Source of the DNA: a virus
Virus record (IMG/VR): IMGVR_UViG_3300023184_006193
Location: 14,834 to 78,833 of that record
DNA length: 64,000 nt
Direction: 5' to 3' (one strand)
Part shown: positions 2,539 through 62,873 of the stretch, in pieces
Position numbering within the stretch: position 1 is the stretch's first letter
How the letters are laid out: the number at the start of each line of letters is the position of its first letter
Translations under genes and position numbers: made by a program
The notes under the pieces: generated by a model
The model's input: the letters and a program-made list of their open reading frames with translations, nothing else
Databases searched by the model: none
Told to the model about the DNA's origin: nothing

Positions 2539-2560
2539 TAGTTAAGAAGAAATTATAAAG

Positions 2561-2591: not shown

Positions 2592-2597
2592 GTGTAA
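2592..2597 (+). promoter_or_regulatory. GTGTAA motif, candidate late promoter
   Basis: Lies immediately after the terminator T-run, where transcription would need to restart. Confidence 0.55.
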
Positions 2598-2630
2598 ATA
2601 CAGTCAAGGTAAAGGTTGGTTAAAAGGTAT

Positions 2631-2852: not shown

Positions 2853-3124
2853 AAAAAAGACTTAATCTTTACCAAGCTATTCCAATTGAAAAAATTATTC
2901 AAAGTAATTTATCTGTTCAATCTATACAAAGGTCTTTAACAAAAGATTTTGGCATAAAGAATCCAAATTATTCAAATTTAACTAATTCTAATTTTTTAAA
3001 ATTTTACGATTCTTGGAATGAAGAAAAAAGAAATAAATTCATTAAAACAATTGGTGGAGTAGTTTATTTCTCTAAAATTAAAAATTTTCTTCAAAAACTA
3101 GAAAGAGAACAAACTGGAGTTTAA
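2849..3124 (+). CDS. Hypothetical protein
   Basis: 91 aa, ATGA overlap with the previous gene. Confidence 0.6.
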   Translation: MKKRLNLYQAIPIEKIIQSNLSVQSIQRSLTKDFGIKNPNYSNLTNSNFLKFYDSWNEEKRNKFIKTIGGVVYFSKIKNFLQKLEREQTGV

Positions 3125-3127
3125 AAT

Positions 3128-25350: not shown

Positions 25351-25379
25351 ATATTATAGCAAGTATAATTAAATGTCAA
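25351..25379 (-). promoter_or_regulatory. Sigma70-type promoter, near-leaderless
   Basis: TTGACA-17-TAATAT-7 nt-ATG(25343). Confidence 0.65.
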
Positions 25380-27958
25380 TTATTTTTATCAATCTTTTTT
25401 AAGTCATTTAATTTCATGTAAATTTGATGGTCTTGAATAGCTATTAAATCTCCAAATATACAATCATCTCTTTTTGAGCCTTTCGCTATTACAATATTGC
25501 CTTCTTCAAAGGCTTTATTATTTAATAGTTTATTATTTTCAATATTATCATTAAATATTAATACGCTAATTGCTGATGTTTCATCTGATATCTTTAATCT
25601 TACATATCTAGTTTTCTTTTCATTTTTAGAAACACCAGTATAAACTTCTTCGATTTGTCCTACTAAAGCTACTTTAGTATTAACTTGTTCATCGATAACA
25701 TCACTTATATATTTAAGATTTTCTCTTTTTTCCGCAAAAATATCTCTTAAATTCTTATTATAAGTATATCCTAAAAGTTTCTTTTCATAATACCAATTTG
25801 CAAAACTTTCACTTTTACTATTTTGATTATAAATTTGAAGGTATGGTTCGTATTTTGTCTTAATAGTATTTAACCTTGCATCTTTAATAACAACGTTGCC
25901 CTTCTCATCAGTGAACTTATTAAGATGTTTAATTATTTTAATTAAATCATAATCAAACTTTTCAGCAAATGAAATAGAGTATTTCTTTTCTTTAGCTGTT
26001 AATATATTCCATAATTGAGCTTCTAGTACAATCTTACTTCTAGATTGATTAAAACCACTCAATGCTCCTGCTTGAATTAAAGAAGACAGCACTCCAATAT
26101 TAAGATTGGCTTCTTCTGCTGCTTGGAATATTTCAAATTTATTGGAATATTTATTTCTAAAACTATTAAGCTTTTCAATCGACTTGTCGCTAATGCCCTT
26201 AATTGATAACAAGCCAAATCTAATGTCTTTATCTTCTATTGAAAAATCCATCTGTGATTTAATAATGTGAGGTGGAAGAAGTTTAATATCAAATTCATGC
26301 ATCTCTTTTTGAATTTTAGAAATTTCACCAATTGGATCGGGCTCATTTCTACTCATCTTCAATAGAGATAAAAAGAATTGCTGTGGATAATTGAATTTTA
26401 AATAAATTGTAACTGCTGCTAAAGCTGCATAAGCCAATGAATGACTTTTATTAAACGAATAATTTGCAGAGTCCTCTAAAATCTTCCAAAGGATCTCTCC
26501 TACTTCTTTTGGAATTTTATTTTCTTTAATTTTTGATTCAATCTTTTTCTTCCATGCTTTAATTTCTTCAGTTTTCTTTTTGCCTACGATTCTTCTTAAA
26601 ATTTCTGCTTCGTCAAGAGTGAAACCAATTTTATGTGCCATTTTCATTAACTGCTCTTGATACAAAGCTACTCCGCCAGTTTCCTTTAAAATCTCATCGA
26701 AAAATGGATGAATACTTTCTGATTGCTGATAATTTGTATGAGCAGCATATTTATCTACGAATTGTAATGCTCCAGGTCTTGCTAGAGCTAGTACTCCACT
26801 TAGTTCTTCTAGATTTTTTGGTTTTACTTTTTGGCAAACTCGAAAATTAGTTTCTGCTTCAATTTGAAACAGTCCATGTGGTGATCTTAATTCTTGTAAA
26901 TTTCTGTAAATAGATTCATGATTTAAATCAATATCTTCTACTTTAATTCCTATATTTTTACAAACATCATCAACTACAGAAACACTTCTTAAGCCTAAAA
27001 TATCAAGTTTAATATTAAATATACTAACCCAATTCATATCAAAGCTAGAAACTGGTTCTTTATCGGAAGAAAATTCTGTAGGACATACTGTTTCTAAATC
27101 GTAATAAGAAAGAAGAACTCCAGATGGATGAACTCCTTTATTCTTAATTAAATCTCTTAATTTTAATGCGATTTGAAATGTTTCTTTATTTTCGTCGCAC
27201 CAATCTTTAAATTTCTCTACTTCTTCATAAGCAGTATTAATATCTTTGACTTGACCATAAACTTTAGGAATTAATGAAGAAATATTGGTCATCTCTTCTT
27301 CGCTTTTTTCACCTACAATTTTTCCGCATTCTTTAATAAGCAACTTACCACTAAGAGTATTTAATGTTAAAATTTTACTAGTTTTGCCTTTAAATTTTGT
27401 TTCTAAATATTGAAGTACTTTTTGACGATTATAATAACAAATATCAATATCTACGTCACACATCAAACTACCATCTAAATATGTTATACCATCAATAACC
27501 TGCTTTTTAGCTCGAATCTTGGATATAAATCTTTCGAAATAAAGGTCATATTTTACTGGATCAATTCTAGTTACTCCAATAAGATATAAAATTAATGATC
27601 CTGCAGCTGAACCTCTACCTAGTCCTATTGGAATATCACTAGTCTTACAGAAGTTAATAACATCCCAAACTAATAAAATATAATCAATAAACCCTAATTC
27701 TTTTAAAGTGTCTAATTCATATTTAGCTCTATCAATATACTTTTTATAATCTTTATTGTTTTTATCTATATTTAATTTTTTAAATCCATTTAAAGCTAAT
27801 GCTCTTAAAAAATCATAATTTGAAACATCTTCGCTAATATTTAAATGCCTCTTAAGAGATGAGTCTATTGAAAACTCTGGAAGTCTAACTCCATGCAGAC
27901 CCAAATCTGTATTATCAAATTTATCTGAAAAAACTTTATCGTCTAAATGCTTATTCAT
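25376..27958 (-). CDS. dnaE: DNA polymerase III alpha catalytic core lacking the N-terminal PHP domain
   Basis: GRGSAAGSL, FERF, DVDID, GVHPSGV, KLDILGL, YQEQ, YSFNKSHS, IRFGL..IKG, and a C-terminal OB fold. Confidence 0.95.
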   Translation of the reverse strand: MNKHLDDKVFSDKFDNTDLGLHGVRLPEFSIDSSLKRHLNISEDVSNYDFLRALALNGFKKLNIDKNNKDYKKYIDRAKYELDTLKELGFIDYILLVWDVINFCKTSDIPIGLGRGSAAGSLILYLIGVTRIDPVKYDLYFERFISKIRAKKQVIDGITYLDGSLMCDVDIDICYYNRQKVLQYLETKFKGKTSKILTLNTLSGKLLIKECGKIVGEKSEEEMTNISSLIPKVYGQVKDINTAYEEVEKFKDWCDENKETFQIALKLRDLIKNKGVHPSGVLLSYYDLETVCPTEFSSDKEPVSSFDMNWVSIFNIKLDILGLRSVSVVDDVCKNIGIKVEDIDLNHESIYRNLQELRSPHGLFQIEAETNFRVCQKVKPKNLEELSGVLALARPGALQFVDKYAAHTNYQQSESIHPFFDEILKETGGVALYQEQLMKMAHKIGFTLDEAEILRRIVGKKKTEEIKAWKKKIESKIKENKIPKEVGEILWKILEDSANYSFNKSHSLAYAALAAVTIYLKFNYPQQFFLSLLKMSRNEPDPIGEISKIQKEMHEFDIKLLPPHIIKSQMDFSIEDKDIRFGLLSIKGISDKSIEKLNSFRNKYSNKFEIFQAAEEANLNIGVLSSLIQAGALSGFNQSRSKIVLEAQLWNILTAKEKKYSISFAEKFDYDLIKIIKHLNKFTDEKGNVVIKDARLNTIKTKYEPYLQIYNQNSKSESFANWYYEKKLLGYTYNKNLRDIFAEKRENLKYISDVIDEQVNTKVALVGQIEEVYTGVSKNEKKTRYVRLKISDETSAISVLIFNDNIENNKLLNNKAFEEGNIVIAKGSKRDDCIFGDLIAIQDHQIYMKLNDLKKIDKNN

Positions 27959-28176: not shown

Positions 28177-28815
28177 TTATACCTCTATTTGCCATTTTAA
28201 TTTATTCCATACTTTTAAGTTTAAGTCAAGATCATTTATTGCATCATGAAGTTTTTCATAATCATGTTCAATTCCATTTTCTTTACCTAAAGCTGTCAAA
28301 GAGCTTTTGACTCCTTTTTTTCTTGTATGATAGATTTTATACTGATATTCAATAAGATTTTCTTTTGGATTATATGGCATTCCATATTTTATACCCCTTG
28401 CGACTGTATTTGTATCAATGAATTTATTAACAAGATGTTGCCAAGAACATCCCATGTATTTATAGTACTCTTTAATAAGATAAATATCAAATCCAAGAGT
28501 ATTGTGTCCAATTATATAGTCTGCATGATCTAACCAATCCTTAATTGTAGCAAATATTTCTTTTGGGTCGTGTCCTTCTTTTTGAACTTTTTTATGATCA
28601 TATCTTGTGATTCTTGCTGCATCTTGGCTAATTTTTAAATCTGTTTGCCATTTCAAATAAAAATTCTTTTGATCTATTTTTTTATCCCCTTGAACTTTTA
28701 ACATCGCTATTTGCCATGGAATATTATGGCAAAAATTAAGACAAAGATTAAACGTCTCGCAGTCAATAAAGACTAGAGTTTTTTTCTTATCATATCTTAA
28801 AAGATGTTCGTCCAT
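28177..28815 (-). CDS. DEDDh 3'-5' exonuclease (DnaQ/epsilon-like)
   Basis: FIDCET, IGHNTLGFD, FIDT, LHDAINDL. Confidence 0.9.
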   Translation of the reverse strand: MDEHLLRYDKKKTLVFIDCETFNLCLNFCHNIPWQIAMLKVQGDKKIDQKNFYLKWQTDLKISQDAARITRYDHKKVQKEGHDPKEIFATIKDWLDHADYIIGHNTLGFDIYLIKEYYKYMGCSWQHLVNKFIDTNTVARGIKYGMPYNPKENLIEYQYKIYHTRKKGVKSSLTALGKENGIEHDYEKLHDAINDLDLNLKVWNKLKWQIEV

Positions 28816-28816
28816 A

Positions 28817-29275
28817 TTAAAAATCAAAAGGATCTGGTTGTTGCCCTAAGTTTTGTAGCCAATTAATATATTGATATTCATTATATTTTTCCCACTTATC
28901 TCCTTTAGATAAATTGTATACCATATAATAACTTAAATTTTTTAAAAAAGCAACAATATATACATCTACATTAAGACAATTAGCTACATGAGTTATTGTA
29001 TATTTTTGAGTATCTCTAGTTTCAAATCTATTTATAATCGCTTTAAAGTAATTTGGTCCAGGAATATTATCATCATCTATACGAGTCATTTCTAAAACTG
29101 CAACTGGTTTCATTTGGCCATCAATAATTCTCCATTCAATCTGGTCTACATCTGTAGTATAGAGTCTATTTAATTTATATTTCCATAACCTATAATCTAT
29201 TAGTCTATCTTCTCTATCATCTCTTTGGCGAGTTTTTCCACCAAAATTATTTACTTTTTTCTCAAGAGTTTTCAT
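28817..29275 (-). CDS. Putative PD-(D/E)XK-like nuclease-fold protein
   Basis: TTDVDQIEW...PVAVLEMT...VANCLNVDVYIV pattern. ATG at 29275 preferred. Confidence 0.4.
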   Translation of the reverse strand: MKTLEKKVNNFGGKTRQRDDREDRLIDYRLWKYKLNRLYTTDVDQIEWRIIDGQMKPVAVLEMTRIDDDNIPGPNYFKAIINRFETRDTQKYTITHVANCLNVDVYIVAFLKNLSYYMVYNLSKGDKWEKYNEYQYINWLQNLGQQPDPFDF

Positions 29276-30011
29276 TTTTCCAACTTTCAAAACAAAATTC
29301 ATTACTACTCATGTGTTCTATTTCTGGTTTATTCAAAACGCTTCTATTATTAATGCATCTAAAAGTAAGATATGTTTTAAAATCTTTTCTAGAATTATAA
29401 TAAATACTTTTCGTATTGAAAACTTCTAGTTTATTCTCTTTAGCAAATGATAGCATTTTGTCTTTAATTATTAAATCAAAGGGTAAGTCATTATTTTCTA
29501 TAAAGATTGCTGGTTTCGTAAAATCAAATTGTGGCACACAAATGCTATTTTTTAAAGCATTGTTGAATATAAAAGAATCATAAAATGGGATAGCTAAAAT
29601 TAAATCCTCTGACCAGTTCTGTTTTAGAATAGAGTAGTCTAATCTAGGTTCATAGTAAAAACCATCTTTCGCTGCTATGCTAAATAATTTAGTTAATGAC
29701 TCGTATCCTTTTTTATTCTTAAAAAATAAAATAACTTTTGAGTTTTTAGCTCTTGATTCGTCTGTTTTATCGTTCATTGATTCCGTTACAGAAATTCTAA
29801 GGCCATAATTTAACTTGATTTTATTATTATTTGTATTTGTATAGGCTTCTAAAAATGAAGACATATTATCTTCTACCAAAAATACCTCTTTAAGTTTATT
29901 GTGTTTAGCTATTTGAATTATTGAATCTGGATAATCGTCTGCTTCATTCTTATCTTCTAGAGTCAATATAGATCTCCCTAAAGAATAATGTGATTTAAAC
30001 AATGGTATCAT
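29262..30011 (-). CDS. Stand-alone PHP domain of Pol III alpha
   Basis: FKSHYSLGRS, KLNYG, VILFFKNKKGYESLTKLFS.A..DGFYYEPRLD, the DnaE N-terminal signature. Confidence 0.9.
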   Translation of the reverse strand: MIPLFKSHYSLGRSILTLEDKNEADDYPDSIIQIAKHNKLKEVFLVEDNMSSFLEAYTNTNNNKIKLNYGLRISVTESMNDKTDESRAKNSKVILFFKNKKGYESLTKLFSIAAKDGFYYEPRLDYSILKQNWSEDLILAIPFYDSFIFNNALKNSICVPQFDFTKPAIFIENNDLPFDLIIKDKMLSFAKENKLEVFNTKSIYYNSRKDFKTYLTFRCINNRSVLNKPEIEHMSSNEFCFESWKNENS

Positions 30012-31010: not shown

Positions 31011-31897
31011 TGAATTATTTCTTCCATATTCATCTCTCCAAAATCTTTTTTAAGTGGTAATGATATCTTCAATTGTCTATCGTCAAAATATCTCTTTAAT
31101 TTAGAGTAAATTTTTTCTGAGGCAATATTTCCAGCATTATTTTTACTTGAGTCGTTATTTAAACTGATATATATTTTTTTAATATCAATTTTTAAAAGAT
31201 AATTTAAAATTGGTAAACTCAAACTTACCCCAAATGTAACAATAACATTTTTAATTCCAGCTTGCCAAAGGCTAAGTAAATCTCCTATGCTTTCTACAAG
31301 AATAACTTCTTTTTCATTTTCTATAATTTTTGAATTTAAAAACAAAGGATAAATAAATTCGCTCTTTTCTCCAAGATGCTTCCATTTTATTTTAGATAGA
31401 TTTGATATATCTCTTCCAGAAAATCCAGTAATATTATTATTTAAATTAAAAATTGGAAATACATATCTATTTTTCATCTTACCCATTTTTGCAACACCAC
31501 CTTTAAACTCTGTTATTATTTCTTTTTGTATATTTCTTTTAATCCAATAATCATGATTATTTTCTAATTTAGATAACAATTCTATATCAAATGTTTTGGT
31601 TGATTTTAATAAAGGTTTTTCTATTTCTTTCGGTTGGTGAAATGCAAAATTTTTATTTTGTAACCATTCTTTTGCTTTACTTGCGTCTTCTAATTTAAGA
31701 GTCATTCCAACTAGCGAACTAAAGTCTCCACTTATGTTTTCCTTAAAATCAAACCAATGACCTGTATCTTTATAAATCTTTAAGACAGTATCATTATCAC
31801 TATCTCTATAAAGAGGTCTAGTCCTATATTCTTTACCGCAATCTTTTAACTTATATCCTAGATCAGTTAAAATTTGATAAACATTTAATTGTTCCAT
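30992..31897 (-). CDS. dnaG: DNA primase (TOPRIM)
   Basis: RYVFPI, GFSGR, KWKH, VILVESIGD, ISLNND, KDFGE. Confidence 0.9.
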   Translation of the reverse strand: MEQLNVYQILTDLGYKLKDCGKEYRTRPLYRDSDNDTVLKIYKDTGHWFDFKENISGDFSSLVGMTLKLEDASKAKEWLQNKNFAFHQPKEIEKPLLKSTKTFDIELLSKLENNHDYWIKRNIQKEIITEFKGGVAKMGKMKNRYVFPIFNLNNNITGFSGRDISNLSKIKWKHLGEKSEFIYPLFLNSKIIENEKEVILVESIGDLLSLWQAGIKNVIVTFGVSLSLPILNYLLKIDIKKIYISLNNDSSKNNAGNIASEKIYSKLKRYFDDRQLKISLPLKKDFGEMNMEEIIQWKKNL

Positions 31898-32541
31898 TCT
31901 AAAGCCTCACTTATCGTAGGAAATTCTTTCATAAAAATCTTTTTGCATTTTTCTGCAATAAGCCTATGTTCTTTTTGAGTATTTTGCTCAGTTCTTAATT
32001 GAATATAATGAACCCAACTTCTTAATGATCCCTTCATATACATTGTTGTTTCTGTACTTAATGGTAATACCATTCTTGCTACTTCTTTAGCTACTCCATT
32101 TTCAATCATTGTATCATAACAATGTTGAGATAAAGATAAACTTTCTGCAATTAGTTCACTTATTTTTTCATAAGCTGGACTATTTACTGATAAAAGTTTT
32201 TCTCCTACTTGTCTATTTTTATCTCCTTGTAGTCTAAGTTCAATATCTTCGTACTCGGTAGCTAAACTATATCTTTGACTAAATTCTTGAAAACTAAATG
32301 ATCTATGCCTTAAAATTTGTGCAGCGATTCCACGACTAGTTTTAATTTCAACGCACATATCAACTAGCTCAAATGGACTCCAATGTTTATGCTCAATTAA
32401 AAACTTTAATAATTTTGGAGCAGTTTGCGTATTCATTTGATTTGATGGATTACTAACTCTAGCGCAATATGCAACTAAATCTTCTGGATTTTTCAACCCT
32501 TTTATTTCTGGTTTTGTAATTGATATTAATTCTACGTTCAT
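31885..32541 (-). CDS. thyX: Flavin-dependent thymidylate synthase
   Basis: HWSPFE, QILRHRSFSFQEFSQRY, EVARMVLP, GSLRSW, TQKEH. Confidence 0.97.
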   Translation of the reverse strand: MNVELISITKPEIKGLKNPEDLVAYCARVSNPSNQMNTQTAPKLLKFLIEHKHWSPFELVDMCVEIKTSRGIAAQILRHRSFSFQEFSQRYSLATEYEDIELRLQGDKNRQVGEKLLSVNSPAYEKISELIAESLSLSQHCYDTMIENGVAKEVARMVLPLSTETTMYMKGSLRSWVHYIQLRTEQNTQKEHRLIAEKCKKIFMKEFPTISEALEWNN

Positions 32542-51682: not shown

Positions 51683-52383
51683 TAATCAAAATATAATATT
51701 TTATCTACTTTTTGATTTTTTGCTTTTAAATTTTGTTTGTAATTAAATTTTTCTATAAAATTTATTACTTGTACTGGTTCAGTATTAAAATTTTTTCTTA
51801 AAAAATCATCATGAATTTCAAGTATTATCTTGGGTTTATGTTTTGATAAAGTTTCTTTACAACCATTTAAAACGTTAAGTTCTGCACCTTCTACATCAAT
51901 TTTAATAATATTTGGTATAATATTAGTATCATTAATGTATTGATCAATTGTTATAGTTTTCGTGCCATTTTTTGAATTTGAATCTCCAAAGAAACATGGA
52001 TTACCAACTTCGCCATTTGGTCCAAGATTAGGTAAATTATAGCTTACATTATCTCCATTTCCAACTGGAGTAGAAATTAGTTGATTATAAATATTGCTAT
52101 ATTTTCTAGATAGATTTTCTAAAGCATATTTAATTAAATCTAAAAATCTTGTATCTGGTTCAAAAGAAATAAAAAAATCATTTTTAGCTTTGGGTGCTAA
52201 TATATAGCTATATATCCCATTGAACGCTCCTATATCAAAAAAATTTCCACCATCATAAAAAGCGTAAGAAGACCTAGCCTCTTCCATGCATTCATTATTT
52301 TTATACCATTGATCTGTCATTTGATCGTAGATTGCATCATCCACCTCTATTTCTGAATTATCAAATAATAGTAATTTTTTCAT
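51682..52383 (-). CDS. FkbM-family methyltransferase
   Basis: FFDIGAFNG, SFEP, TID, IIKIDVEGAELNVL.G, PKIILE. Confidence 0.92.
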   Translation of the reverse strand: MKKLLLFDNSEIEVDDAIYDQMTDQWYKNNECMEEARSSYAFYDGGNFFDIGAFNGIYSYILAPKAKNDFFISFEPDTRFLDLIKYALENLSRKYSNIYNQLISTPVGNGDNVSYNLPNLGPNGEVGNPCFFGDSNSKNGTKTITIDQYINDTNIIPNIIKIDVEGAELNVLNGCKETLSKHKPKIILEIHDDFLRKNFNTEPVQVINFIEKFNYKQNLKAKNQKVDKILYFD

Positions 52384-53141
52384 ATATCTAATAAATGATT
52401 ATAGTAGTTTTCATTAAAATCTTCTAAATATTGATGAACCTTATGATTTGGCTCTATCCCTCCAGATTCAATCTTCCAATGTTCTTTCCAAAAATTTTTA
52501 TTCCTTAATACTCTGTCTTCTAAATTTAAGTATCCATTATGTACTACAAATGGAACTGTTTTTGATCTTAATGAATTTATATCATTATCAAACATTTTAG
52601 ATGATACTAAATTCCCATTTGAATCTATTAATTCACATGTGTCACTTTTTGATGTGTCTACTGTTCCGTTTTGATTTCTCGCAAAATTAACTGCTCCTCT
52701 AAAAAGATTACTTTTATGTAAATACCATTTATGTCCTATCGAAAAATAATGGTCTTTATCTTTATAAAGATTAAGAGAGGGTATCATATAGCAATTACAA
52801 ATATCAAATCTTAGTTGATAAGCTAGATTAGTCCAAATATCTTTTTGCCATAATGGAATATATTCATCCATGTCAAGACCAATCTTAAATTCTTCTTTTG
52901 TGTTTTGTAATGCTTCATTTTTAATTTTACCATCTAATAATGGATCTTGATAAGAGAAATTAGTTTGAATTAATTTCAAATTATTAAATTTTAATGATTT
53001 TAATGTTTCTAGAGTGCTATCTTCTGATTTGTTTACCGCTATTACCACTTCATCTGCAAAACTACAAAAACTATTAATAGATTCAATATAATTGAAATTA
53101 TTCTTGATAAGATTAAAGGCAGAGCTATATATACTAAACAT
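52380..53141 (-). CDS. GT2-like glycosyltransferase, first gene of the glycan island
   Basis: FADEVVIAV..SED.T, KNEAL, LDMDE, VVHNGY. Confidence 0.78.
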   Translation of the reverse strand: MFSIYSSAFNLIKNNFNYIESINSFCSFADEVVIAVNKSEDSTLETLKSLKFNNLKLIQTNFSYQDPLLDGKIKNEALQNTKEEFKIGLDMDEYIPLWQKDIWTNLAYQLRFDICNCYMIPSLNLYKDKDHYFSIGHKWYLHKSNLFRGAVNFARNQNGTVDTSKSDTCELIDSNGNLVSSKMFDNDINSLRSKTVPFVVHNGYLNLEDRVLRNKNFWKEHWKIESGGIEPNHKVHQYLEDFNENYYNHLLDI

Positions 53142-53147
53142 TTAATA

Positions 53148-53156
53148 ATTATAACA
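53148..53156 (-). promoter_or_regulatory. Extended -10 promoter (TG-T-TATAAT), predicted leaderless, driving the glycan island
   Basis: TGTTATAAT-6 nt-ATG(53141). Confidence 0.65.
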
Positions 53157-53168
53157 TGAAAAATAAAA

Positions 53169-53197
53169 TTGACAAACAAAAAAATAATAGGTACTAT
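53169..53197 (+). promoter_or_regulatory. Sigma70-type promoter for the structured RNA and/or nrdAB
   Basis: TTGACA-17-TACTAT. Predicted start ~53204 with no ATG there. Confidence 0.75.
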
Positions 53198-53233
53198 ATA
53201 ATACATAGTATTAATTAAATAATACAAAGTTTT

Positions 53234-53492
53234 GCTATTTTCTAAAAATAGTGAGTTTGAATTGATCCGAAACGTCGGGCAACGCTAACGAAGCTTGCGA
53301 CCCGAGAAACCTTAAGAAATTAAGGGAGTGTAGGTGGAAGGGCTAACGCGCGATGGATGATCCTACCGACATCCGATAAGTGTTAGGCGAGCCGAAAGGC
53401 TTATAGACTCAATTGGGAAAATGGATCAGTTAGCTCGAAGTAACCCTATCATACAGGGAAAGCTTCGCTTTGCAAGAGCTCATTGGGAAAAT
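53234..53492 (+). ncRNA. Unassigned structured non-coding RNA or 5' leader
   Basis: GC-rich (62 of 120 nt in 53281-53400) in an AT-rich genome, with no ORF. Closing stem 53253-53268/53423-53436, GAAA-capped hairpins at 53310-53325 and 53389-53402, and further stems. Confidence 0.7.
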
Positions 53493-53614
53493 AATTAATA
53501 AGAGATTAGAGATTCTGTACACATATATAAAGTAAGTTTAATGTATTGTTAACAACAACGAAATTTTTCTTTTATAATTTTAAAAAATACTGTAAACTTA
53601 TATTCACAGTAAGT

Positions 53615-55876
53615 ATGAGTAAATATATAAATGTAAAAAAACGAAATGGATCAACTGAAAAATTTGATATAGAAAAGATCAATCGAGTAATTAACTGGGC
53701 AATAGATGGCTATTCTGGAGTAAGTTTAACTGATATCGAAATTAATGCAAAAATAAATATTCATGATGGCGTATCAAGCAAGGAAATACATAATCTTTTA
53801 ATTGAAAGTGCAGCTAATTTAATTTCTGTTGAAAAACCAAATTATCAATTTGTAGCAGCTAGGCTTTTGAGTTATCAATTAAGAAAAGACGTATGGAAAG
53901 GGAAGCATCCACCAAGATTATCTGAATTCTTAAAAGAAAGTATTAAAAATAAAATTTATGATGAAAGTATTTTAAAATATTATTCAGAAGATGAAATTAA
54001 TAAGATTGGTGAATTCATTGATCACGATAGAGATTTTATTTTTACTTACGCTGGGATAAAGCAGCTGTGTGATAAATATTTAATTAAAGATAGGGTAAAT
54101 GGAAAAATTTACGAAACACCTCAGTTTGCATATATATTAATTGCTGCTTACTCTTTCGCTAAATATCCAGTAGAGACAAGACTTTCTTATGTTAGAAAAT
54201 TTTATGATGCTATTAGTAAACATAAAATAAATCTACCAACCCCCGTAATGGCTGGTGTTAGGACAAGCAGCAGAAATTATGCTAGTTGCTGTTTGATTGG
54301 AGTAGACGATACTAGAGAAAGTATTACCGCTAGCGCTACAGCAGTAAGCATGGCTACAGCTAATAGATGTGGGATTGGAATTGATGTAAGTAAAATCAGA
54401 GCTATTGGTTCTCCTATTAAGAATGGTGAGGTTGTTCATACTGGCTTAATTCCATTTCTTAAAATTTATGAAAGTAGCGTAAAGGCTTGGCAACAGAATG
54501 GTTTAAGAGGTGGAAGCGCAACTTGCAATATTCAATGGTGGCATTATGAAATCGAAGATATTATTGTATTAAAAAATAACGCTGGAACAGACGATAACAG
54601 AGTTAGAAAACTTGATTATACAGTTGGTATGAGTAAATTATTTTATGATAGAGTTTTGAAAGATGAAGATATAACTTTATTTAATAACTCAGAAGTTCCA
54701 GAGCTTTATGAAGCGTGGGGAACAAAAGATTTTGACAAAGTATATAAGGAATGTGAATCTAAAAAATTAAAGATTAAAAAGAAAGTATCTGCTCGTAAAT
54801 TATTTTCTCTTATAATTAAAGAAAGAGTAGAAACTGGTCGTATTTATATACTGAATGTTGACCATGCAAACAATCATGGAGCTTGGCTAGATAAAGTTAC
54901 CATGAGTAATCTTTGTACAGAAGTTATTCATCCAACTATCCCATTAAATGATTATCACGATAAAAATGGAGAAATTGGAATGTGTATTCTTTCAGCGGTA
55001 AATATGTTAGAAATTAAAAACTGGCAAGATCTTGAAAAGACTTGCGATCTTATCGTTAGATTTCTTGATGAAATCATTGATCTTCAAGATTATTTTAATA
55101 TTGCTGCTGAGAATTTCGCTAAAAAACGTAGAAGTCTTGGAATTGGAATAACTAATTTAGCAGCATTTTTAGCCAAGAATGAATTAAAATACACTTCTGA
55201 TAAATCATTAGCAGTTATTGATGAATGGATGGAATATTTTCAATATTATCTTTTAAAGAGTAGCGTTGAGTTAGCTAAAGAAAAAGGTAAGTGCGAAAAA
55301 TTTGATAAAACTAAATATTCTAAAGGAATATTACCAATTGATACTTATAAAGATAAATTAGATGAAATTATTAAAAGAAAATTATGTCTTGATTGGGATA
55401 AATTAAGAAAAGATATTAAAGAGTTTGGTTTAAGGCATTCTACATTATCTTCTTGTATGCCTTGTGAGAGCAGTTCTGTTATTCAATGTTCAACAAATGG
55501 AGTAGAACCAATCAGAAGCCTTATAACTTATAAGACTAGTAAGATGGGTAAACTTCCAGTTATGGTCCCAGGAATTGGCAAATATGATGATAATTATGAA
55601 TTAGCTTATGATTTAAAAGATAATAGTGGTTTATTAAAAATTAACGCAGTTATTCAAAAATATATTGACATGGCAATATCAACTAATGTATACTATAACT
55701 ATAGTCATTATGAGAATAATATATTACCAGATGCAAAAGTTATGAAAGAAGTAATGTATGCCTATAGCCTTGGATTAATTAGCATGTATTATAATAATAC
55801 AGATGATGGAGATAAAGAGCAATCATTAAATCAAAAAGAAGATAGAGACTGCTCAAGTGGTGCGTGTAAATTGTAA
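53615..55876 (+). CDS. nrdA: Class Ia ribonucleotide reductase alpha subunit with ATP cone
   Basis: VKKRNG ATP cone, YETPQ, LPTPVMAG, ASCCL, SNLCTE, MPCESSS, YYNN, C-terminal CSSGAC. ATG at 53615 preferred. Confidence 0.97.
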   Translation: MSKYINVKKRNGSTEKFDIEKINRVINWAIDGYSGVSLTDIEINAKINIHDGVSSKEIHNLLIESAANLISVEKPNYQFVAARLLSYQLRKDVWKGKHPPRLSEFLKESIKNKIYDESILKYYSEDEINKIGEFIDHDRDFIFTYAGIKQLCDKYLIKDRVNGKIYETPQFAYILIAAYSFAKYPVETRLSYVRKFYDAISKHKINLPTPVMAGVRTSSRNYASCCLIGVDDTRESITASATAVSMATANRCGIGIDVSKIRAIGSPIKNGEVVHTGLIPFLKIYESSVKAWQQNGLRGGSATCNIQWWHYEIEDIIVLKNNAGTDDNRVRKLDYTVGMSKLFYDRVLKDEDITLFNNSEVPELYEAWGTKDFDKVYKECESKKLKIKKKVSARKLFSLIIKERVETGRIYILNVDHANNHGAWLDKVTMSNLCTEVIHPTIPLNDYHDKNGEIGMCILSAVNMLEIKNWQDLEKTCDLIVRFLDEIIDLQDYFNIAAENFAKKRRSLGIGITNLAAFLAKNELKYTSDKSLAVIDEWMEYFQYYLLKSSVELAKEKGKCEKFDKTKYSKGILPIDTYKDKLDEIIKRKLCLDWDKLRKDIKEFGLRHSTLSSCMPCESSSVIQCSTNGVEPIRSLITYKTSKMGKLPVMVPGIGKYDDNYELAYDLKDNSGLLKINAVIQKYIDMAISTNVYYNYSHYENNILPDAKVMKEVMYAYSLGLISMYYNNTDDGDKEQSLNQKEDRDCSSGACKL

Positions 55877-55879
55877 TCC

Positions 55880-56944
55880 ATGAAAACAGTATTAAATTTT
55901 AAGAATATAGATACTACGAAGCAACCATTATTCCTTGGAGAAGATCTTAATCTTCAAAGATACGATAGATTCAAATATCCAGTATTTTTTGAGTTATTTA
56001 AAAAACAAAATGAAAATTTCTGGTGGCCTCATGAAATAGCTTTAGGAAAAGATAGAAGTGATTATAAGAATTTAACAGATACAGAAAGATTTGTATTTGA
56101 TAGTAATTTAAGATTTCAAACTCTTGGAGATAGTATGCTTTCTCGTAGTATTCATTCTCTGAAGGATTATGTAAGTAATCCAGAACTCGAAATTTGCATG
56201 AATACTTGGGCTCAATTTGAAGGTATACATAGCTATTCTTATTCTTATCTTTTAAATAATGTTTATCCAGATGCAACTAAATTTTTTGATAGTATTATGG
56301 AAGATAAAGAAATTACTAGCCGCGCAGAACTTATTAGAAATAATTTTGATAAAATTCTTGGAGATGATAATAAAAAAGATCCTAAACAAAAGATTTTTGA
56401 TGCTATTCTTTCTATTAATGTAATGGAAGGTCTTGTATTTTATGTTTCCTTTGCTTGTTCTTTCTATTTTGGATATCGTGGAAAAATGGAAGGCAACTCT
56501 AAGATTATTAAATTTATCCAAAGAGATGAAGCTCTTCACTTTGCAGTAAGCCAGAATCTACTTAAAATTTTAAAAGAAGAAGATAAAGAAGGTTTCACAT
56601 CAGTAGTAAAGAAAAGTGAAGATAAAATATATGCTTTTTATGAACAAGCGGCTAAAAATGAAAGCGAATGGTCTAAATATCTATTTAGTAAAGGTAATTT
56701 ACTTGGATTAAATACAGAGGTTCTAGATGGTTATTCTAAATGGTTATGCGATAATAGACTAAGAAGTATTGGTTATAAGAAGATATTTAATCAAAAGGAT
56801 AATCCCATAGGTGGTTGGTTAGATAGTTATTTAGATAGTAGTAAAGTGCAAGTAGCCCCTCAAGAGACAGAAATATCAAGCTATAAGATAGGTGCAAGAA
56901 AAACTGATATATCTGATGATGATTTCGATAATTTTAAACTATAA
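55880..56944 (+). CDS. nrdB: Class Ia ribonucleotide reductase beta subunit
   Basis: FWWPHE, QTLGDS, FEGIHSYSY, EGLVFYVSF, RDEALH, VAPQETEISSY. Confidence 0.97.
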   Translation: MKTVLNFKNIDTTKQPLFLGEDLNLQRYDRFKYPVFFELFKKQNENFWWPHEIALGKDRSDYKNLTDTERFVFDSNLRFQTLGDSMLSRSIHSLKDYVSNPELEICMNTWAQFEGIHSYSYSYLLNNVYPDATKFFDSIMEDKEITSRAELIRNNFDKILGDDNKKDPKQKIFDAILSINVMEGLVFYVSFACSFYFGYRGKMEGNSKIIKFIQRDEALHFAVSQNLLKILKEEDKEGFTSVVKKSEDKIYAFYEQAAKNESEWSKYLFSKGNLLGLNTEVLDGYSKWLCDNRLRSIGYKKIFNQKDNPIGGWLDSYLDSSKVQVAPQETEISSYKIGARKTDISDDDFDNFKL

Positions 56945-57304: not shown

Positions 57305-57760
57305 TTAATTTTTTATTTTATTAAAATCTCCATAATTAACTAGAATTTCTTCTCCAATTTGGATATCTTTTACAGAATACATATACATTTTTTGATATTC
57401 TGAATTATATATAATTTTAACATTTTGATTATCATCAGTAAAGCTATTATTTATAAAACTAGCATCTCCTAGAAGCATCATATAAATATAATGATCTTCA
57501 CCATTTGCACATTTAAAATGTATTTTATTTAAATAATTATCGAAAGCAAGCACATTATAATATTTAATAAATTGTTGCTCAATTTCAGAATATAATAAAT
57601 TATTATCTATATAATTTTCAGCATAATCTTTTGGTAAAACTGTAAATTTTAAATCTAAAAGATTTGTATCTTTTTTAATAAATTTTTTAGCAAAAAGACC
57701 ATTTCCATGTAGTTTAGACTTTTTAACAAAAAATAAATCTGATGCATTTTCTTCATTCAT
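57305..57760 (-). CDS. SET-domain protein-lysine methyltransferase
   Basis: VKKSKLHGNGLFAKKFIKK, ASFINNS, DIQIGEEILVNYG. Confidence 0.88.
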   Translation of the reverse strand: MNEENASDLFFVKKSKLHGNGLFAKKFIKKDTNLLDLKFTVLPKDYAENYIDNNLLYSEIEQQFIKYYNVLAFDNYLNKIHFKCANGEDHYIYMMLLGDASFINNSFTDDNQNVKIIYNSEYQKMYMYSVKDIQIGEEILVNYGDFNKIKN

Positions 57761-58104
57761 AATAATGTTGGCGGTGGTCTTTTACCTTTTCTTTTTTTAC
57801 TCCATTTATCTAAATATGCAGTTTTTAACTTATCTTCTCCAAATTTATCTTTTCTTTTCTCAGAAAGCTCTTTACTTCTATCCCATAATTGACCAACATT
57901 ATCTTTTTTATTACGAGTTTTTTCTGCAAATTCCTTAGAAGTACTGAATGCGTCTAATTTTGTATCAATACCAACTTGAGGCACGGTAAATATTCTATTC
58001 CATTTTAAACCATTTTTATCAATATAAATATGGTCATCATTCACAGATTGAATAATTTCTATGATATCCTTTGTCTTAGGATTTTCATAAATATATACTG
58101 GCAT
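57757..58104 (-). CDS. FmdB-like protein (Cys-less zinc-ribbon variant)
   Basis: MPVYIYE...RIFTVP pattern. Confidence 0.5.
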   Translation of the reverse strand: MPVYIYENPKTKDIIEIIQSVNDDHIYIDKNGLKWNRIFTVPQVGIDTKLDAFSTSKEFAEKTRNKKDNVGQLWDRSKELSEKRKDKFGEDKLKTAYLDKWSKKRKGKRPPPTLL

Positions 58105-59501: not shown

Positions 59502-59530
59502 ATTGTATCTACTTTATTAGATTTTGTCAA
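59502..59530 (-). promoter_or_regulatory. Sigma70-type promoter, predicted leaderless
   Basis: TTGACA-17-TACAAT-6 nt-ATG(59495). Confidence 0.78.
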
Positions 59531-60122
59531 AACAATTTTTACTGTTAAATTTAACTTTAAGTAATGCAATAGCTTTATTATGTAGATTAATTGCAGTTTG
59601 AGTGCTAATATTTAGCTTTTTACCTATTTTCTTCCAAGGCATATTCTTTTTATTATTAAAATATCTTAAATTATATATTTGAGATATCCTTTTGTCTTGC
59701 AAAGAGTTTAGTATATCGAATATATATTCTTTAACTTCTTCTTTTTTTATTTCATTTTTTAAAGCGTTTTTATCTATATGATAAATCAAATCTTTTTCTT
59801 CCATTGCTATAGTTTTATTATTATCATTAAGTAAATTTAAGCATTGATATCTTACTTGATTATATAACCAAGTAGAGAATTTAGATTTTTTATCTGGATT
59901 AAAAGAGATAGCAGATTTATATACTATATAATCTTTATCTTTTTTAACATCATCTATAAATATTCCAGAACAATTTAAAGCATTTGAGTATTTATTATAT
60001 ATATTATTACATAGTGGCGAATGCCTATTAATTAATTCTTTAAGGCAAAATTCATCATTATTGATCTTAATGCCTTTGATAAGCTCTTCGTCAGTTTTAG
60101 TTATTGTTATTGTGTTTTTCAT
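59517..60122 (-). CDS. Phage-encoded sigma70-family sigma factor
   Basis: Region 2: ELINRH...FNPDKKSKFSTWLYNQVR. Region 4 HTH: IYNLRY...WKKIGKKLNISTQT....HNKAIALLK. Confidence 0.9.
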   Translation of the reverse strand: MKNTITITKTDEELIKGIKINNDEFCLKELINRHSPLCNNIYNKYSNALNCSGIFIDDVKKDKDYIVYKSAISFNPDKKSKFSTWLYNQVRYQCLNLLNDNNKTIAMEEKDLIYHIDKNALKNEIKKEEVKEYIFDILNSLQDKRISQIYNLRYFNNKKNMPWKKIGKKLNISTQTAINLHNKAIALLKVKFNSKNCFDKI

Positions 60123-60709
60123 ATTTTTTTAATTTGTAAATATTTTTCGTAAACATTCTTTAATTGTTTTTGCATTAAATCATACAAGAAATTAACATCT
60201 TGACAAGTTTCCCAAGATATTGCTATATCTGCTACCGCTTTTAATTTATTGTCATTAGCTTTTTCTTCTACATTAGCTGGAGGAATTACAGAGCCATCAT
60301 CAAGTTTTCTTGATATATGTATTAATAATCCATTATGATTTTTAAGCCAAGAATATTCATCTTCTTTGTATTCTATATATCTTACGTCAGTAATTATAGG
60401 GACAATATCCTTTTCTATAAGTTTTTTAATTTTAGGATCAAGAAGTGATGTCCAATACTTGCCTTCAGTTTGAGCTCTTCTACATTTTCCATATGCAACC
60501 ATTAATGGTCTTACTAGCTCCTTTTCTGTTGGATTGCATTTAAATAAATCTATTTTAAATTTTTCTTTAGTGAAATCATTCAACTCATGTTTCAAGTCAT
60601 CTGCGAAAGCCAATCTTTCAGATTTTATATTTTTTTCTTCTAAATATTTTTTTAAAATAGAATAAAAAGTGTCCTTACCAGATCTAGCGACTCCAGTTAA
60701 CCCTATCAT
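60119..60709 (-). CDS. Deoxynucleoside monophosphate kinase
   Basis: IGLTGVARSGKDT, LAFADDLK, RPLM..YG, YW, IITDVRY..E. ATG at 60709 preferred. Confidence 0.88.
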   Translation of the reverse strand: MIGLTGVARSGKDTFYSILKKYLEEKNIKSERLAFADDLKHELNDFTKEKFKIDLFKCNPTEKELVRPLMVAYGKCRRAQTEGKYWTSLLDPKIKKLIEKDIVPIITDVRYIEYKEDEYSWLKNHNGLLIHISRKLDDGSVIPPANVEEKANDNKLKAVADIAISWETCQDVNFLYDLMQKQLKNVYEKYLQIKKI

Positions 60710-60710
60710 A

Positions 60711-61214
60711 TTATTCACTACTTCCTTCTGAAAAAGTTTCACCATCATAAGTTGGGCCACTACTATACTTTGGAGAAACATATTTATAATTACTGATTTG
60801 TTTTTGAATAGCGGTTTTTACGGAATTTAAATTTGGATCAATTATTTTAGCTTCAAATGGTTTATTAAAAATACTCCCATTAGAAGTATTTGTTGAGTCA
60901 CTATTGTACTTATAAGTTCTATACATTTTATCTCCAACAATAATATAGGTTGGAAATGGTTTAGATATAACAGATCCTCTTGATGAATTTGTGTCTCCAC
61001 TTGCATATCTATATTTGTAAGTTTCATAAACTTCAATTCCTCTGTGAGTCTTGAGATAATTATACTCTTGAAAGGGTCTATTAAATATAGATCCATCAGA
61101 TGAATTAGTGCTACCATCTCTATATTTATATGTTTCATATACTGCACCAGTTTGAGAAAATCCAATACTCATCGATGCAATTAATATGTATATGGTATAT
61201 AATTTATTTTTCAT
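60711..61214 (-). CDS. Secreted protein with three internal repeats
   Basis: Signal-peptide-like N-terminus and three copies of Y(E/R)TYKY...TN(S/T)S.GS...PF. Confidence 0.7.
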   Translation of the reverse strand: MKNKLYTIYILIASMSIGFSQTGAVYETYKYRDGSTNSSDGSIFNRPFQEYNYLKTHRGIEVYETYKYRYASGDTNSSRGSVISKPFPTYIIVGDKMYRTYKYNSDSTNTSNGSIFNKPFEAKIIDPNLNSVKTAIQKQISNYKYVSPKYSSGPTYDGETFSEGSSE

Positions 61215-61620
61215 ATTTATTTATGTTAACTCCATAATATTTAAAAATTTCCAAAGCATTTTGATCTGGTTCATAATCTTCTAAATATATAATATTTTTA
61301 ATTCCGTGAGCAATAATTGCAGTAGCGCAAGAAGAGCATGGAAGCAATGTACAAGCCAGAACATGTGGTTTATCGGTTCTTTTTATCAAACTCAAGGCAT
61401 TGATCTCTGCATGAAGAATATACTTTCTTCTAGCGTCCCTATCATCCCAAAACCCTTCTTTAGCATCAAACTTTGATGGTAAACCATTATATCCAACAGA
61501 TAAAACTCTGCCTTCTTCATTTAGAATACAGCAACCAACCTTTTTAAAAGGGTCTTCTGATCTCAAGGCCCAAACCTTTGCAGTAGCTAAGGCAATATTA
61601 GTGAAAGATGTTCTATTCAT
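61204..61620 (-). CDS. dCMP deaminase
   Basis: RSEDP..KVG, GYNG, HAE.NA, PCSSC. Confidence 0.93.
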   Translation of the reverse strand: MNRTSFTNIALATAKVWALRSEDPFKKVGCCILNEEGRVLSVGYNGLPSKFDAKEGFWDDRDARRKYILHAEINALSLIKRTDKPHVLACTLLPCSSCATAIIAHGIKNIIYLEDYEPDQNALEIFKYYGVNINKYEK

Positions 61621-61690
61621 GATTTTTAATCCACCAAAATAAAGATATTGATAGTCCAGCCATCATGCAGAATAAGTTCTGGTAATCCAT
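61613..61690 (-). CDS. 25-aa hydrophobic micropeptide (not in the ORF track)
   Basis: MDYQNLFCMMAGLSISLFWWIKNHE*. Its ATG sits at the predicted +1 of a sigma70 promoter and its end overlaps the deaminase start. Confidence 0.55.
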   Translation of the reverse strand: MDYQNLFCMMAGLSISLFWWIKNHE

Positions 61691-61696
61691 TTATAA

Positions 61697-61762
61697 ATAC
61701 TACTTTAAATATAAATCATTGTCAAATACAAACTTGACATTCTTTTCAAAATATAGTAATAT
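61697..61762. promoter_or_regulatory. Back-to-back divergent sigma70-type promoters
   Basis: On -: TTGACA(61725-61720)-17-TAGTAT-6-ATG(61690). On +: TTGACA(61734-61739)-17-TAATAT-7-ATG(61770). Confidence 0.75.
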
Positions 61763-61769
61763 ATTTGAT

Positions 61770-62873
61770 ATGATAAATGAATTTAAAGAAGCATTAAGTT
61801 ACGATGATATTTCACTTCTACCAAATTTCTCGGATATTACCTCAAGAAAAGAAGTAGATACTACAACTAAAATTTCAAGGAATAATTCTATTAAAATTCC
61901 AATTATATTGTCTCCAATGGATACTGTTTCTTCTGTAAAATCATGTATTAAAATGAATAAAATTGGTGCAGCTGGAGTGCTTCATCGTTTTATGTCGATT
62001 GACGACCAAAGATCAAAATCAAAAACAATCAAAGATGAAAGCGGATTTTCTATAAATGCGATTGGATTAAAAGATGCCGAAGAAAGAATTAGAGCTACTA
62101 GCACATATACTGATATTTATTTTCTTGATACTGCCAATGGGTTAGCAAAGAATGTAGAAGATTTTTTAAGATGGTTTAAGACAGCTAACTTTTCTCAAGA
62201 TATCATAGTTGGAAATACATTAACTAAAGAAAGCGTATATAGATTAGCAAATTTAAAAGCAGATGGCTTTAGACATCTTATTGGTCCAGGCTCAATGTGC
62301 TTAACCCAAGTTAAAACTGGAATTGGTTGTCCAAGTTTGACTGGAAATTATTACGCTTGGAAAGCTATAAGAAATTGGGAATTATCTCAAGTAGATCTAT
62401 TTAAACATGATAAACCAAATCCAGAACATAGACCGAGTATTTTAGCTGATGGAGGCATTAGATATCCAAAAGATTTAGTTAAAGCTATTGCTAGCGGTTG
62501 CGATGCTGTTATTTGTGGAAGAATATTTGCTGGCCTAGAGGATGTTATGGATGATGAGGATATAGTAGAAAAAAATGGAGTAAAATATGCTAAATATAGA
62601 GGTATGGCTAGCAAAGATGTAGTAGAAGATTATGAACTACATGATGGCACAAAGAAAAATCTTTTTGTAGAAGGAGACAATACTTTAATTCCATTAGCAA
62701 ACAAATCACTAGAAGATGTTGTTTATGATTTTACTAATGGTTTAAGAAGCGCAATGAGTTATCTTGGCTTTAGATCTCTAGAGGAGATGAGGGGTGGACT
62801 TTGGACAAATAAAATTGTAGCAGTTAGAACCACCGCCAACAGCATGTACGAAGGGTTTGCTCATGGAAAATAA
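61770..62873 (+). CDS. IMPDH/GMP reductase family enzyme without CBS domains
   Basis: LSYDDI.LLP, SPMDTV, GVLHR, DTANG, IGPGSMCLT, ADGGI, YRGMAS, VEG, GLRSAMSY.G. Confidence 0.92.
   Translation: MINEFKEALSYDDISLLPNFSDITSRKEVDTTTKISRNNSIKIPIILSPMDTVSSVKSCIKMNKIGAAGVLHRFMSIDDQRSKSKTIKDESGFSINAIGLKDAEERIRATSTYTDIYFLDTANGLAKNVEDFLRWFKTANFSQDIIVGNTLTKESVYRLANLKADGFRHLIGPGSMCLTQVKTGIGCPSLTGNYYAWKAIRNWELSQVDLFKHDKPNPEHRPSILADGGIRYPKDLVKAIASGCDAVICGRIFAGLEDVMDDEDIVEKNGVKYAKYRGMASKDVVEDYELHDGTKKNLFVEGDNTLIPLANKSLEDVVYDFTNGLRSAMSYLGFRSLEEMRGGLWTNKIVAVRTTANSMYEGFAHGK

Follow-up and report, generated by a model that had tools for sequence, protein, structure and literature searches.

The subject of this analysis is a stretch of viral DNA of 64,000 nucleotides (nt), positions 14,834 to 78,833 of IMG/VR record IMGVR_UViG_3300023184_006193 (the window; all coordinates count from its first letter), and within it a gene of ~290 nt, at 53203–53492 on the + strand, for a structured RNA that we name twin-box RNA. 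The window is a portion of an AT-rich tailed phage (GC content of the DNA ~27–30%) with a long tape-measure protein, tail genes of the siphovirus type, DnaE, DnaB, primase, RecA, ThyX, dCMP deaminase and many glycosyltransferases. To the left of the RNA gene lies a glycosyltransferase-like open reading frame (ORF; 52380–53141, − strand) and to the right nrdA (53615–55876, +), which has its full ATP-cone N-terminus and is followed by nrdB (55880–56944); gene orientation in the window switches at the RNA site. The closest relatives of its NrdA belong to Pelagibacter phages (52–53% identity), and this kinship, together with the low GC content, gives only a hint that the host may be a streamlined freshwater bacterium. 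We consider it very likely that the element is a genuine RNA gene in its own right, belonging to a new family. The evidence is its covarying fold, its own promoter, its shifting position relative to nrdAB in related phages and a pair of near-identical sequence boxes that change in step.

The GC content is 0.42–0.45 across 53200–53499, as against 0.21–0.30 in the flanking DNA, and rises to 0.52 in 53272–53404, in agreement with an earlier note on this DNA that had described a core of ~52% GC in AT-rich surroundings. The same note had called the site the sole long intergenic stretch of the window. That is correct when ORFs of at least 60 amino acids (aa) are counted, 53228–53545 then being the only internal ORF-free gap of at least 200 nt, but not when the cut-off is raised to at least 100 aa, at which four more internal gaps appear (e.g. 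2539–3127). The promoter TTGACA-17-TACTAT that it had read upstream of the RNA was located by a promoter scan at 53169–53197 on the + strand (−35 TTGACA at 53169–74, a 17-nt spacer and −10 TACTAT at 53192–97). By eye, a TTGACA-like −35 and a TAnnAT-like −10 stand at a constant distance before an ACAUA start in nearly all of 33 upstream sequences (the exceptions are L056, L065 and L068, where L numbers denote individual loci), and an equivalent arrangement is present in subfamilies C and D. The limits of the gene are predicted from the sequence alignments and the promoter alignment: promoter geometry and the conserved ACAUAG would put the 5′ end near 53203, and the 3′ end probably falls just past box 2 (described below), where conservation stops. 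From the predicted start to box 2 the RNA thus measures ~290 nt and not the ~260 nt first supposed. As to expression, one lake metatranscriptome run, from one study, matched part of the stretch (share 0.08, the uncovered parts being uninformative). A 239-nt contig spans 53245–53480 at 97% identity, the cover of the flanks amounts to two pieces of 32–35 nt, less than 90% alike, at 53153–53187 and 53560–53591, and no contig in that run links the RNA to nrdA. This contig hints only weakly at an RNA that is discrete and abundant; contigs cannot reveal ends.

A NrdA query yielded 80 loci in IMG/VR, which were fetched with ±3 kb, and nhmmer found the element directly before nrdA in 19 of them, along with two weak matches. 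A motif scan of IMG/VR gave 26 matches, two of which (L098 and L100) are chance matches in GC-rich coding DNA, and a motif scan of a metagenome collection gave 23. In the alignment of close homologues (33 sequences, 32 distinct) the structure pairs 92.0% of cells, and changes on both sides occur at 20 of its 67 pairs, whereas a control in which the 3′ partners were slid by 1–3 columns has 1–6 such pairs; neither the paired fraction nor the covariation score was reached in any of 500 shuffles. The covariation in related contigs by which the earlier note had proposed to check its RNA is therefore present. A covariance model of the P4–P7 core (R1; the helices are described below) was run on the 61 loci seemingly without the RNA and gave full-length matches in 26. 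The resulting alignment of all subfamilies holds 56 members with 48 distinct cores in five subfamilies; the paired share of its cells is 96.5%, and compensatory change is seen at 26 of 30 pairs, as against 8–12 in the slid control, although it should be noted that this alignment was fitted to the model and so leans toward structure. Subfamilies C and D share with the others the promoter, the ACAUAG start, the helices (with differing letters), both pseudoknots with covariation and the twin boxes. An exhaustive comparison of alignment columns for additional covariation returned only noise from two-state columns. A broader covariance model (R2) was run on five whole records and found one copy in each, so that an earlier lack of R1 matches in five whole records was a failure of the narrow model; the L008 record was searched with R1 only.

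Between the window and loci L041, L046 and L003 the NrdA proteins are 89–94% identical, though hardly a helix is the same in their RNAs, which are of the main subfamily in the one case and of subfamily B in the other. Either the RNA gene is evolving far more quickly than those beside it, or it is passed between phages as a module.

Folding of the + strand is more stable than that of shuffled sequences (z = −3.69, matched by none of 100 shuffles), whereas the − strand gives z = −1.20 and is matched by 13 of 100; read on the + strand, the hairpins have GNRA loops. The preference of the earlier note for this strand is thus upheld. The written structure has 12 helices when the halves of P3 are counted separately, or 11 when P3 is taken as one, and consists of P2 to P8 and two pseudoknots (PK1 and PK2), all on the + strand. 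P1, a hairpin GUAUUA/UAAUAC at 53208–53225 in the minimum free energy fold, is left uncounted here and in the pair counts; the MAFFT alignment is poor there, and by eye other members have differing hairpins at this position (CGC..GCG, CCGC..GCGG, GCUU..AAGC). It is followed by P2 (GCUAUU/AAUAGU, 53234–53252), in which three of six pairs are changed on both sides. P3 is a long-range helix that closes the multi-helix core, its 5′ strand at 53253–53268 and its 3′ strand, from the alignment structure, at 53423–53436; two of five pairs in its outer part are compensatory, and the inner part, misaligned by an A2 indel, nevertheless pairs in every subfamily by eye. Within P3, the first element (53275–53305) is P4 (53275–79/53301–05) with an inner P4a (53283–85/53297–99) and an 11-nt loop, identified by covariation, four of five and three of three pairs, respectively, being compensatory across subfamilies. 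The loop of P4a contains the 5′ strand of PK1, CGAAGCUU (53289–53296), which pairs with the 3′ strand AAGCUUCG at 53460–53467. Three of the eight PK1 pairs are compensatory among the close homologues (in 1, 10 and 14 of 32 rows), and the 56 members contain 13 distinct complementary versions, e.g. CAAAGCUU/AAGCUUUG, CAGGCU/AGCCUG, AAGGGCU/AGCCCUU, GAAGACUU/AAGUCUUC and CGCAAGCUU/AAGCUUGCG.

P5 (53310–53325) is a hairpin with a GAAA loop, compensatory in four of six pairs among close homologues and in five of six across all subfamilies. After it comes GUAGG (53330–53334), the 5′ strand of PK2, whose partner CCUAC (53362–66) lies in the loop of P6a. PK2 occurs in six versions (GUAGG/CCUAC, GUAGGU/ACCUAC, GUAGCU/AGCUAC, GUGGCU/AGCCAC, GUGGAU/AUCCAC and GUAGUU/AACUAC) and is weakened to 3–4 pairs in three of the 56 members (L003, L005 and L049). 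P6 (53343–49/53380–86) surrounds P6a (53355–59/53370–74), the whole covarying element extending over 53343–53386; as helices 4–6 of the core alignment, P6/P6a have five of six, one of one and four of five pairs compensatory. P7 (53389–53402), another hairpin with a GAAA loop, is compensatory in all four pairs with 90% of cells paired. The 3′ strand of P3 is linked to P7 by a conserved single strand, box 1 (AGACUCAAUUGGGAAAAU, 53405–53422), and is followed by P8 (CCCU/AGGG, 53444–53458), a hairpin that differs in length and sequence among members, then by the 3′ strand of PK1, a short linker and the last conserved element, box 2 (AGAGCUCAUUGGGAAAAU, 53475–53492).

Most of the stems that the earlier note had picked out by eye are kept and covary in relatives, namely 53253–68/53423–36 (P3), UCGGG/CCCGA (P4), CCUUAA-GAAA-UUAAGG (P5), GAGCC-GAAA-GGCUU (P7) and the inner CCCU/AGGG of the 3′ hairpin (P8). 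Two of its assignments need revision. GUAGG and CCUAC do pair, but they form a pseudoknot across P6/P6a; and of the 3′ hairpin drawn at 53436–67 only the inner stem stands, the outer CGAAG (53437–41)/CUUCG pairing not being conserved. CUUCG (53463–67) belongs instead to the 3′ strand of PK1, with its partner in the P4a loop at 53289–96.

These results bear on whether the element acts as RNA at all. The element might work as DNA, for instance as a set of iterons, a site of recombination or an origin: two direct repeats ~70 bp apart could bind a protein, and the site stands where gene orientation changes in the window. Against this, the compensatory changes preserve Watson–Crick and G–U pairs on one strand only, the GNRA loops and the excess stability are specific to the + strand, relatives keep the promoter at a constant spacing and the metatranscriptome contig is confined to the element. 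We regard the chance that this is a DNA element as close to negligible.

Both boxes are 18 nt long and rich in purines, and consist of RGA, five letters offset by a one-base shift, and a 10-nt core. The first eight letters of the core are equal in the two boxes in 54 of the 56 members parsed, the remaining two (L032 and L103) having been mis-anchored by the parsing pattern. This holds across six core types, UUGGGAAA, UUGGGAAG, UUGGAAAG, CUGGGAAG, AAGAAAAG and GGGAAAAA, so different that identity between types is 6.0/10, compared with 9.2/10 between the two boxes of one member. Even the purine at the front (R, A or G) is mirrored in both boxes, as is the change of the lead C to U in type D. The A/G positions of the boxes do not drift apart, as mere protein tolerance would allow, and the box sequences therefore seem to point to one of three things: a shared nucleic-acid partner that co-varies with them, direct contact of box with box, or a copying step.

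The last of these would be provided by a template RNA with repeat-guided realignment, in which a polymerase copies from box 2 back to box 1 and the nascent end re-anneals on box 2; template jumps of this type are made by telomerase and DRT2. Copying would account for the lasting identity of the boxes across six types and would need no third partner. However, a domain scan of 46 of the 63 ORFs of at least 100 aa in the window, itself part of the genome, detected no reverse transcriptase (RVT), and the unit from box to box contains the 3′ strand of P3, P8 and a strand of PK1; it consists of parts of the fold and so is not a free template. Its length ranges over 65–75 nt without favouring multiples of three. 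A never-ending ORF, as read in a six-fold concatemer, was rejected, 34 of 44 distinct units having no stop-free frame; such a frame occurs only where the unit length is a multiple of three (10 of 12 such units). We think a template RNA most improbable.

Direct contact could take the form of parallel like-with-like pairing (A·A, G·G, U·U), base for base, which would lock the 3′ tail onto the junction of the core and would account for the mirrored changes (A to G and the reverse, U to C, and swaps of whole cores) with no third partner. Parallel homoduplexes are known for poly(A) and d(GA) repeats, and a row of at least eight like-with-like pairs would, if real, be a tertiary motif; to our knowledge no run of at least eight is known at such length in natural RNA. 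We hold this possibility to be distinctly unlikely. That the boxes are two equivalent docking sites for one partner, the RNA serving as a scaffold, decoy or sponge, is a possibility that we entertain more seriously, if tentatively. That the core is a ribozyme or otherwise catalytic would seem unlikely.

The placement of the RNA relative to nrdAB differs among the phages. Within ±3 kb, 47 of the 80 NrdA-anchored loci carry the RNA. It is directly upstream of nrdA in 25, 19 with the main type and six with type B or the L068 form (these six diverged forms are L003, L005, L041, L046, L049 and L068); in 20 it lies on the opposite strand, 1.2–2.5 kb beyond nrdB; and two further copies, found with R2, are cut by the end of the locus. 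In the three opposite-strand loci for which ORFs were listed (L048, L026 and L035) the RNA converges on ORFs of the + strand with no co-directional ORF behind it, and it cannot be a 5′ leader there. The five whole records have exactly one copy each; in all four of those that lack the RNA near nrdA it lies 7–10 kb upstream of nrdA, with convergent ORFs behind it in three and a co-directional ORF of 320 aa in one. In L065 and L090, which are the same contig, a gene for a GT25-family glycosyltransferase (371 aa, L065 1790–2905) stands between the RNA and nrdA. Finally, the ~100 nt that adjoin nrdA are shared with phages that lack the RNA at that place. The changing place and orientation of the RNA, the shared nrdA-proximal 100 nt and the GT25 insertion make it an independent gene.

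The earlier note had considered a nucleotide-responsive leader controlling ribonucleotide reductase, that is, a cis-acting riboswitch of nrdAB in which the core is an aptamer for a nucleotide-related ligand and the tail (the 3′ strand of PK1 and box 2) an expression platform, box 2 mimicking box 1 for a strand swap. There is something to be said for this. Without exception, members of the main subfamily have the RNA shortly ahead of nrdA and in its orientation (58 of 58 loci with enough downstream sequence, many of them from the same contigs), no terminator separates it from nrdA, box 2 and the 3′ strand of PK1 fall outside the core closed by P3, and riboswitches ahead of nrd genes are known, namely of the adenosylcobalamin (AdoCbl) and 2′-deoxyguanosine (2′-dG) classes. 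The 20 opposite-strand loci, convergent in the three examined, the four whole records with the RNA 7–10 kb away, the intervening GT25-like gene and the nrdA-proximal 100 nt, which have their own promoter-like site and are unchanged in phages that have no RNA there, all tell against it. Nor was an expression platform found: there is no terminator-like site within 52900–53900 and no conserved helix that would mask the ribosome-binding site, and a pyrimidine block before nrdA is invariant as the boxes change. The sole candidate for an alternative helix (53461–66/53476–80) is not conserved, being broken without compensation in L028, L030, L108, L058, L099 and L065 and absent in types B, C and D and in L068. 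The convergent loci largely refute a leader, and we now think one very unlikely.

Several side observations concern the DNA between the RNA and nrdA and the neighbourhood of nrdAB. In 53517–53614 the blocks GTACAC, TGTTAAYAA, TTTTCTTTT and CTGTAAAC are conserved also where the RNA is absent, GTACAC falling within the 3′ end of an ORF in loci without the RNA. This segment contains a promoter-like site (TTAACA-18-TATAAT, 53549–78) and, directly before the nrdA start codon, an inverted repeat ACTGT/ACAGT (53589–93/53606–10), the arms of which vary among phages yet remain complementary (e.g. AATGTAA/TTACATT); it is probably the promoter and operator of nrdA itself, or a hairpin in its 5′ untranslated region (UTR). 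An ORF of 115–116 aa (window 57757–58104, − strand; L008 2574–2924) is matched only weakly by phrog_385 of PHROGs (‘transcriptional regulator’, E = 8e-5) and by no Pfam family. In many relatives it lies directly before nrdA, whereas the window copy (49.6% identity) is beyond nrdB on the other strand, and it follows from these differing places that the neighbourhood of nrdAB is shuffled among these phages. The idea that this ORF replaces the RNA in phages that lack it was dropped, as the window has its own copy. In the C and D loci, an ORF of 66–83 aa that starts MEI... diverges from beside the RNA promoter and travels with the RNA as a cassette (L026 7080–7280, L035 7583–7834, L048 7842–8051 and L131–L134); a Pfam search with the L026 copy returned no family.

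The genes around the RNA also bring to mind a replication primer or the transcript of an R-loop origin, in which the purine-rich boxes would hybridise with the template and prime DNA synthesis; the ColE1 RNA II and the oriF and oriG transcripts of T4 prime replication via persistent hybrids. Such a primer would suit a strong constitutive promoter with no terminator, boxes rich in purines, a place in a replication and nucleotide arm (DnaB, primase, DnaE, RecA, ThyX, NrdAB and dCMP deaminase) and a set of scanned ORFs in which no initiator protein was recognised. An R-loop leaves unexplained, however, the identity of the boxes, the GNRA loops and two covarying pseudoknots. Past box 2 nothing is conserved in the convergent loci, GC skew around the RNA merely follows gene orientation, and the fact that the RNA stands in differing places and orientations with respect to the replication genes of different phages speaks weakly against a primer as well. 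We consider this alternative, too, unlikely.

The search for a known family was negative throughout. None of the 4227 models of Rfam 15, which include riboswitches, RNase P, tmRNA, SRP, 6S, group I and II introns, GOLLD, ROOL, raiA, OLE, HEARO and pRNA, matched anywhere in the 64-kb window at gathering scores, and a permissive search of 53100–53650 returned only symR at chance level (15.9 bits against a gathering score of 61, E = 2.6). ARAGORN found no tRNA or tmRNA gene in the window. The earlier note had been unable to match the RNA to tRNA, tmRNA, RNase P, SRP or an intron, had named a hit to a known Rfam family as what would remove the novelty and had proposed a new class of phage non-coding RNA; these searches and the strong covariation bear it out. 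A group I intron was examined separately. The core of such an intron has the order P3-(P4-P6)-P7-P3′-P8-P7′, with flanking exons; the strand order here (GUAGG, P6 5′, P6a 5′, CCUAC, P6a 3′, P6 3′) is unlike it, there is no interrupted gene, the ATP-cone N-terminus of nrdA being complete, and there is no Rfam match.

The family is known only from uncultured AT-rich contigs of lake phages. A blastn search of 53150–53560 against 50,697 isolate phage records found no match, nor did an exact 35-mer against IMG/VR. A motif specifying 26 bases had no match in 185,579 species genomes, although it fits only the main and B types and would miss prophage copies of other types. No description of the RNA was found in the literature on structured phage RNAs and nrdA riboswitches. 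A covariation-based survey of IMG/VR intergenic regions lists 8,495 unnamed viral candidate RNAs, DNAVirus_1 to DNAVirus_8495, of 29–151 nt (PMC10690425), and at these lengths none can span the whole 290-nt fold; the main text of that paper has no nrd-linked or twin-repeat motif, and the words ‘ribonucleotide’ and ‘nrd’ do not occur in it.

Taken together, it appears rather probable that twin-box RNA is an independent gene of a new family that acts in trans through its twin boxes; action in trans is what we infer from the changing place and orientation in related phages. The host RNA polymerase probably transcribes the RNA early and strongly from the near-consensus sigma-70 promoter, and the RNA would accumulate as a compact particle. 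Its fold, established by covariation, has two 5′ hairpins followed by P3, which closes a junction with P4/P4a, P5, P6/P6a and P7; PK2 lies inside the core and PK1 ties the 3′ tail to the P4a loop. P3, PK1 and PK2 may thereby keep both boxes near each other at the junction, PK1 placing box 2 beside the core. The boxes are the most likely functional surface, either as equivalent sites for one partner or as mutual partners.

A number of points weigh against this proposal. The ends given for the RNA are predictions from sequence, and the RNA-seq support is a single contig of depth 2.3 from one study, RNA libraries being able to contain DNA. As no terminator follows the RNA, window transcripts from its promoter probably continue into nrdA, and a cis effect on nrdA through such run-on transcripts is possible in the window. 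The main-subfamily RNA lies 84–113 nt before nrdA, counted from where the nhmmer match ends (1241 nt in one contig), a linkage that a leader would also show. The box motif and its complement are no commoner in the window than in shuffles, and in five phage records the complement of box 2 is matched perfectly nowhere but at box 2 itself, while sites with one mismatch are scattered and about as frequent as the control. No RNA-binding domain was found in the domain scan of 46 of the 63 ORFs already mentioned, the 17 outside the scan lying in a glycan island or overlapping another ORF. Pairing of the boxes with the P2 loop, J1/2 (GUUUU), J5/6 (GGGAGU) or the pyrimidine block TTTTCTTTT was also considered and set aside, these being, by eye, either not conserved or invariant as the boxes change. 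As to novelty, pieces of twin-box RNA may be among the 8,495 candidates of PMC10690425.

Other features of the window may be recorded here. A set of nucleotide-metabolism genes surrounds the RNA (31885–32541 and 59517–62873), including ThyX, dCMP deaminase and a protein of the IMPDH/GMP-reductase family, together with two proteins that score below the Pfam cut-off, one resembling sigma-70 region 2 (a weak match) and one resembling a dNMP kinase. Beside the nrdAB block is a SET-domain protein of 151 aa (57305–57760, − strand; Pfam SET, E = 3e-12). The DnaE core gene (within 25376–27958) starts past the PHP domain, and a separate PHP-domain gene (29262–30011) and a DEDDh exonuclease gene (28177–28827) lie upstream of it; as all three are separate genes, the polymerase is split.

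Phages are a main source of large structured RNAs with unassigned functions. This family is well delimited: it divides into five subfamilies, covariation proves both of its pseudoknots, it has a promoter of its own, and each of the five whole records searched has one copy. At ~290 nt it is small enough for probing and cryo-electron microscopy. Its boxes follow a rule of identity, which standard covariation methods do not seek, and we know of no RNA mechanism that needs identity over 8–10 positions; solving them could bring to light an unfamiliar tertiary motif, a new mode of recognition between RNA and partner, or a copying mechanism. The relatives also correct an easy mis-annotation, as what appears in one genome to be an nrdAB riboswitch is an independent gene.

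Comparison with known systems places the RNA more clearly. The candidates of PMC10690425 come from the same source, IMG/VR, which contains the twin-box family, and are too short for the full fold. The glutamine riboswitch and two-piece tmRNA described for pelagiphage-like marine phages (PMC9004378) differ from twin-box RNA, the shared point being that phages of streamlined aquatic hosts carry structured RNAs. Like an nrd riboswitch, twin-box RNA is, in the window, a conserved folded RNA upstream of nrdA; unlike one, it has no Rfam match, is not kept in the 5′ UTR across the family and has no expression platform that we could find. With the ColE1 RNA II and the T4 oriF and oriG transcripts it shares a promoter, the lack of a terminator, a fold, purine-rich stretches and a replication neighbourhood, but its position varies, and the identity of the boxes and two pseudoknots would go unexplained. 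The pRNA of phi29 is made from a strong early promoter and has two loops that stay complementary. Twin-box RNA resembles it as a phage-encoded structured RNA with a strong promoter and short drifting stretches under mutual constraint; the constraint is identity rather than complementarity, however, there is no match in Rfam and the tail genes in the window phage are of the siphovirus type. Nearest in kind are the large ‘ornate’ non-coding RNAs known from phages, prophages and bacteria: GOLLD (which we take to be RF01998), ROOL (presumably RF03087), OLE and the raiA motif. Twin-box RNA matches none of these in sequence or in structure; it is smaller (~290 nt), has no adjacent tRNA genes and has twin boxes that change in step, for which we know of no counterpart in GOLLD, ROOL, raiA or OLE. 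Like them, it is large, multi-helix and pseudoknotted with GNRA loops, and, like RNAs of the GOLLD and ROOL kind, it is a stand-alone, phage-borne RNA of environmental sequence with an unassigned function, kept by covariation and transcribed from its own promoter.

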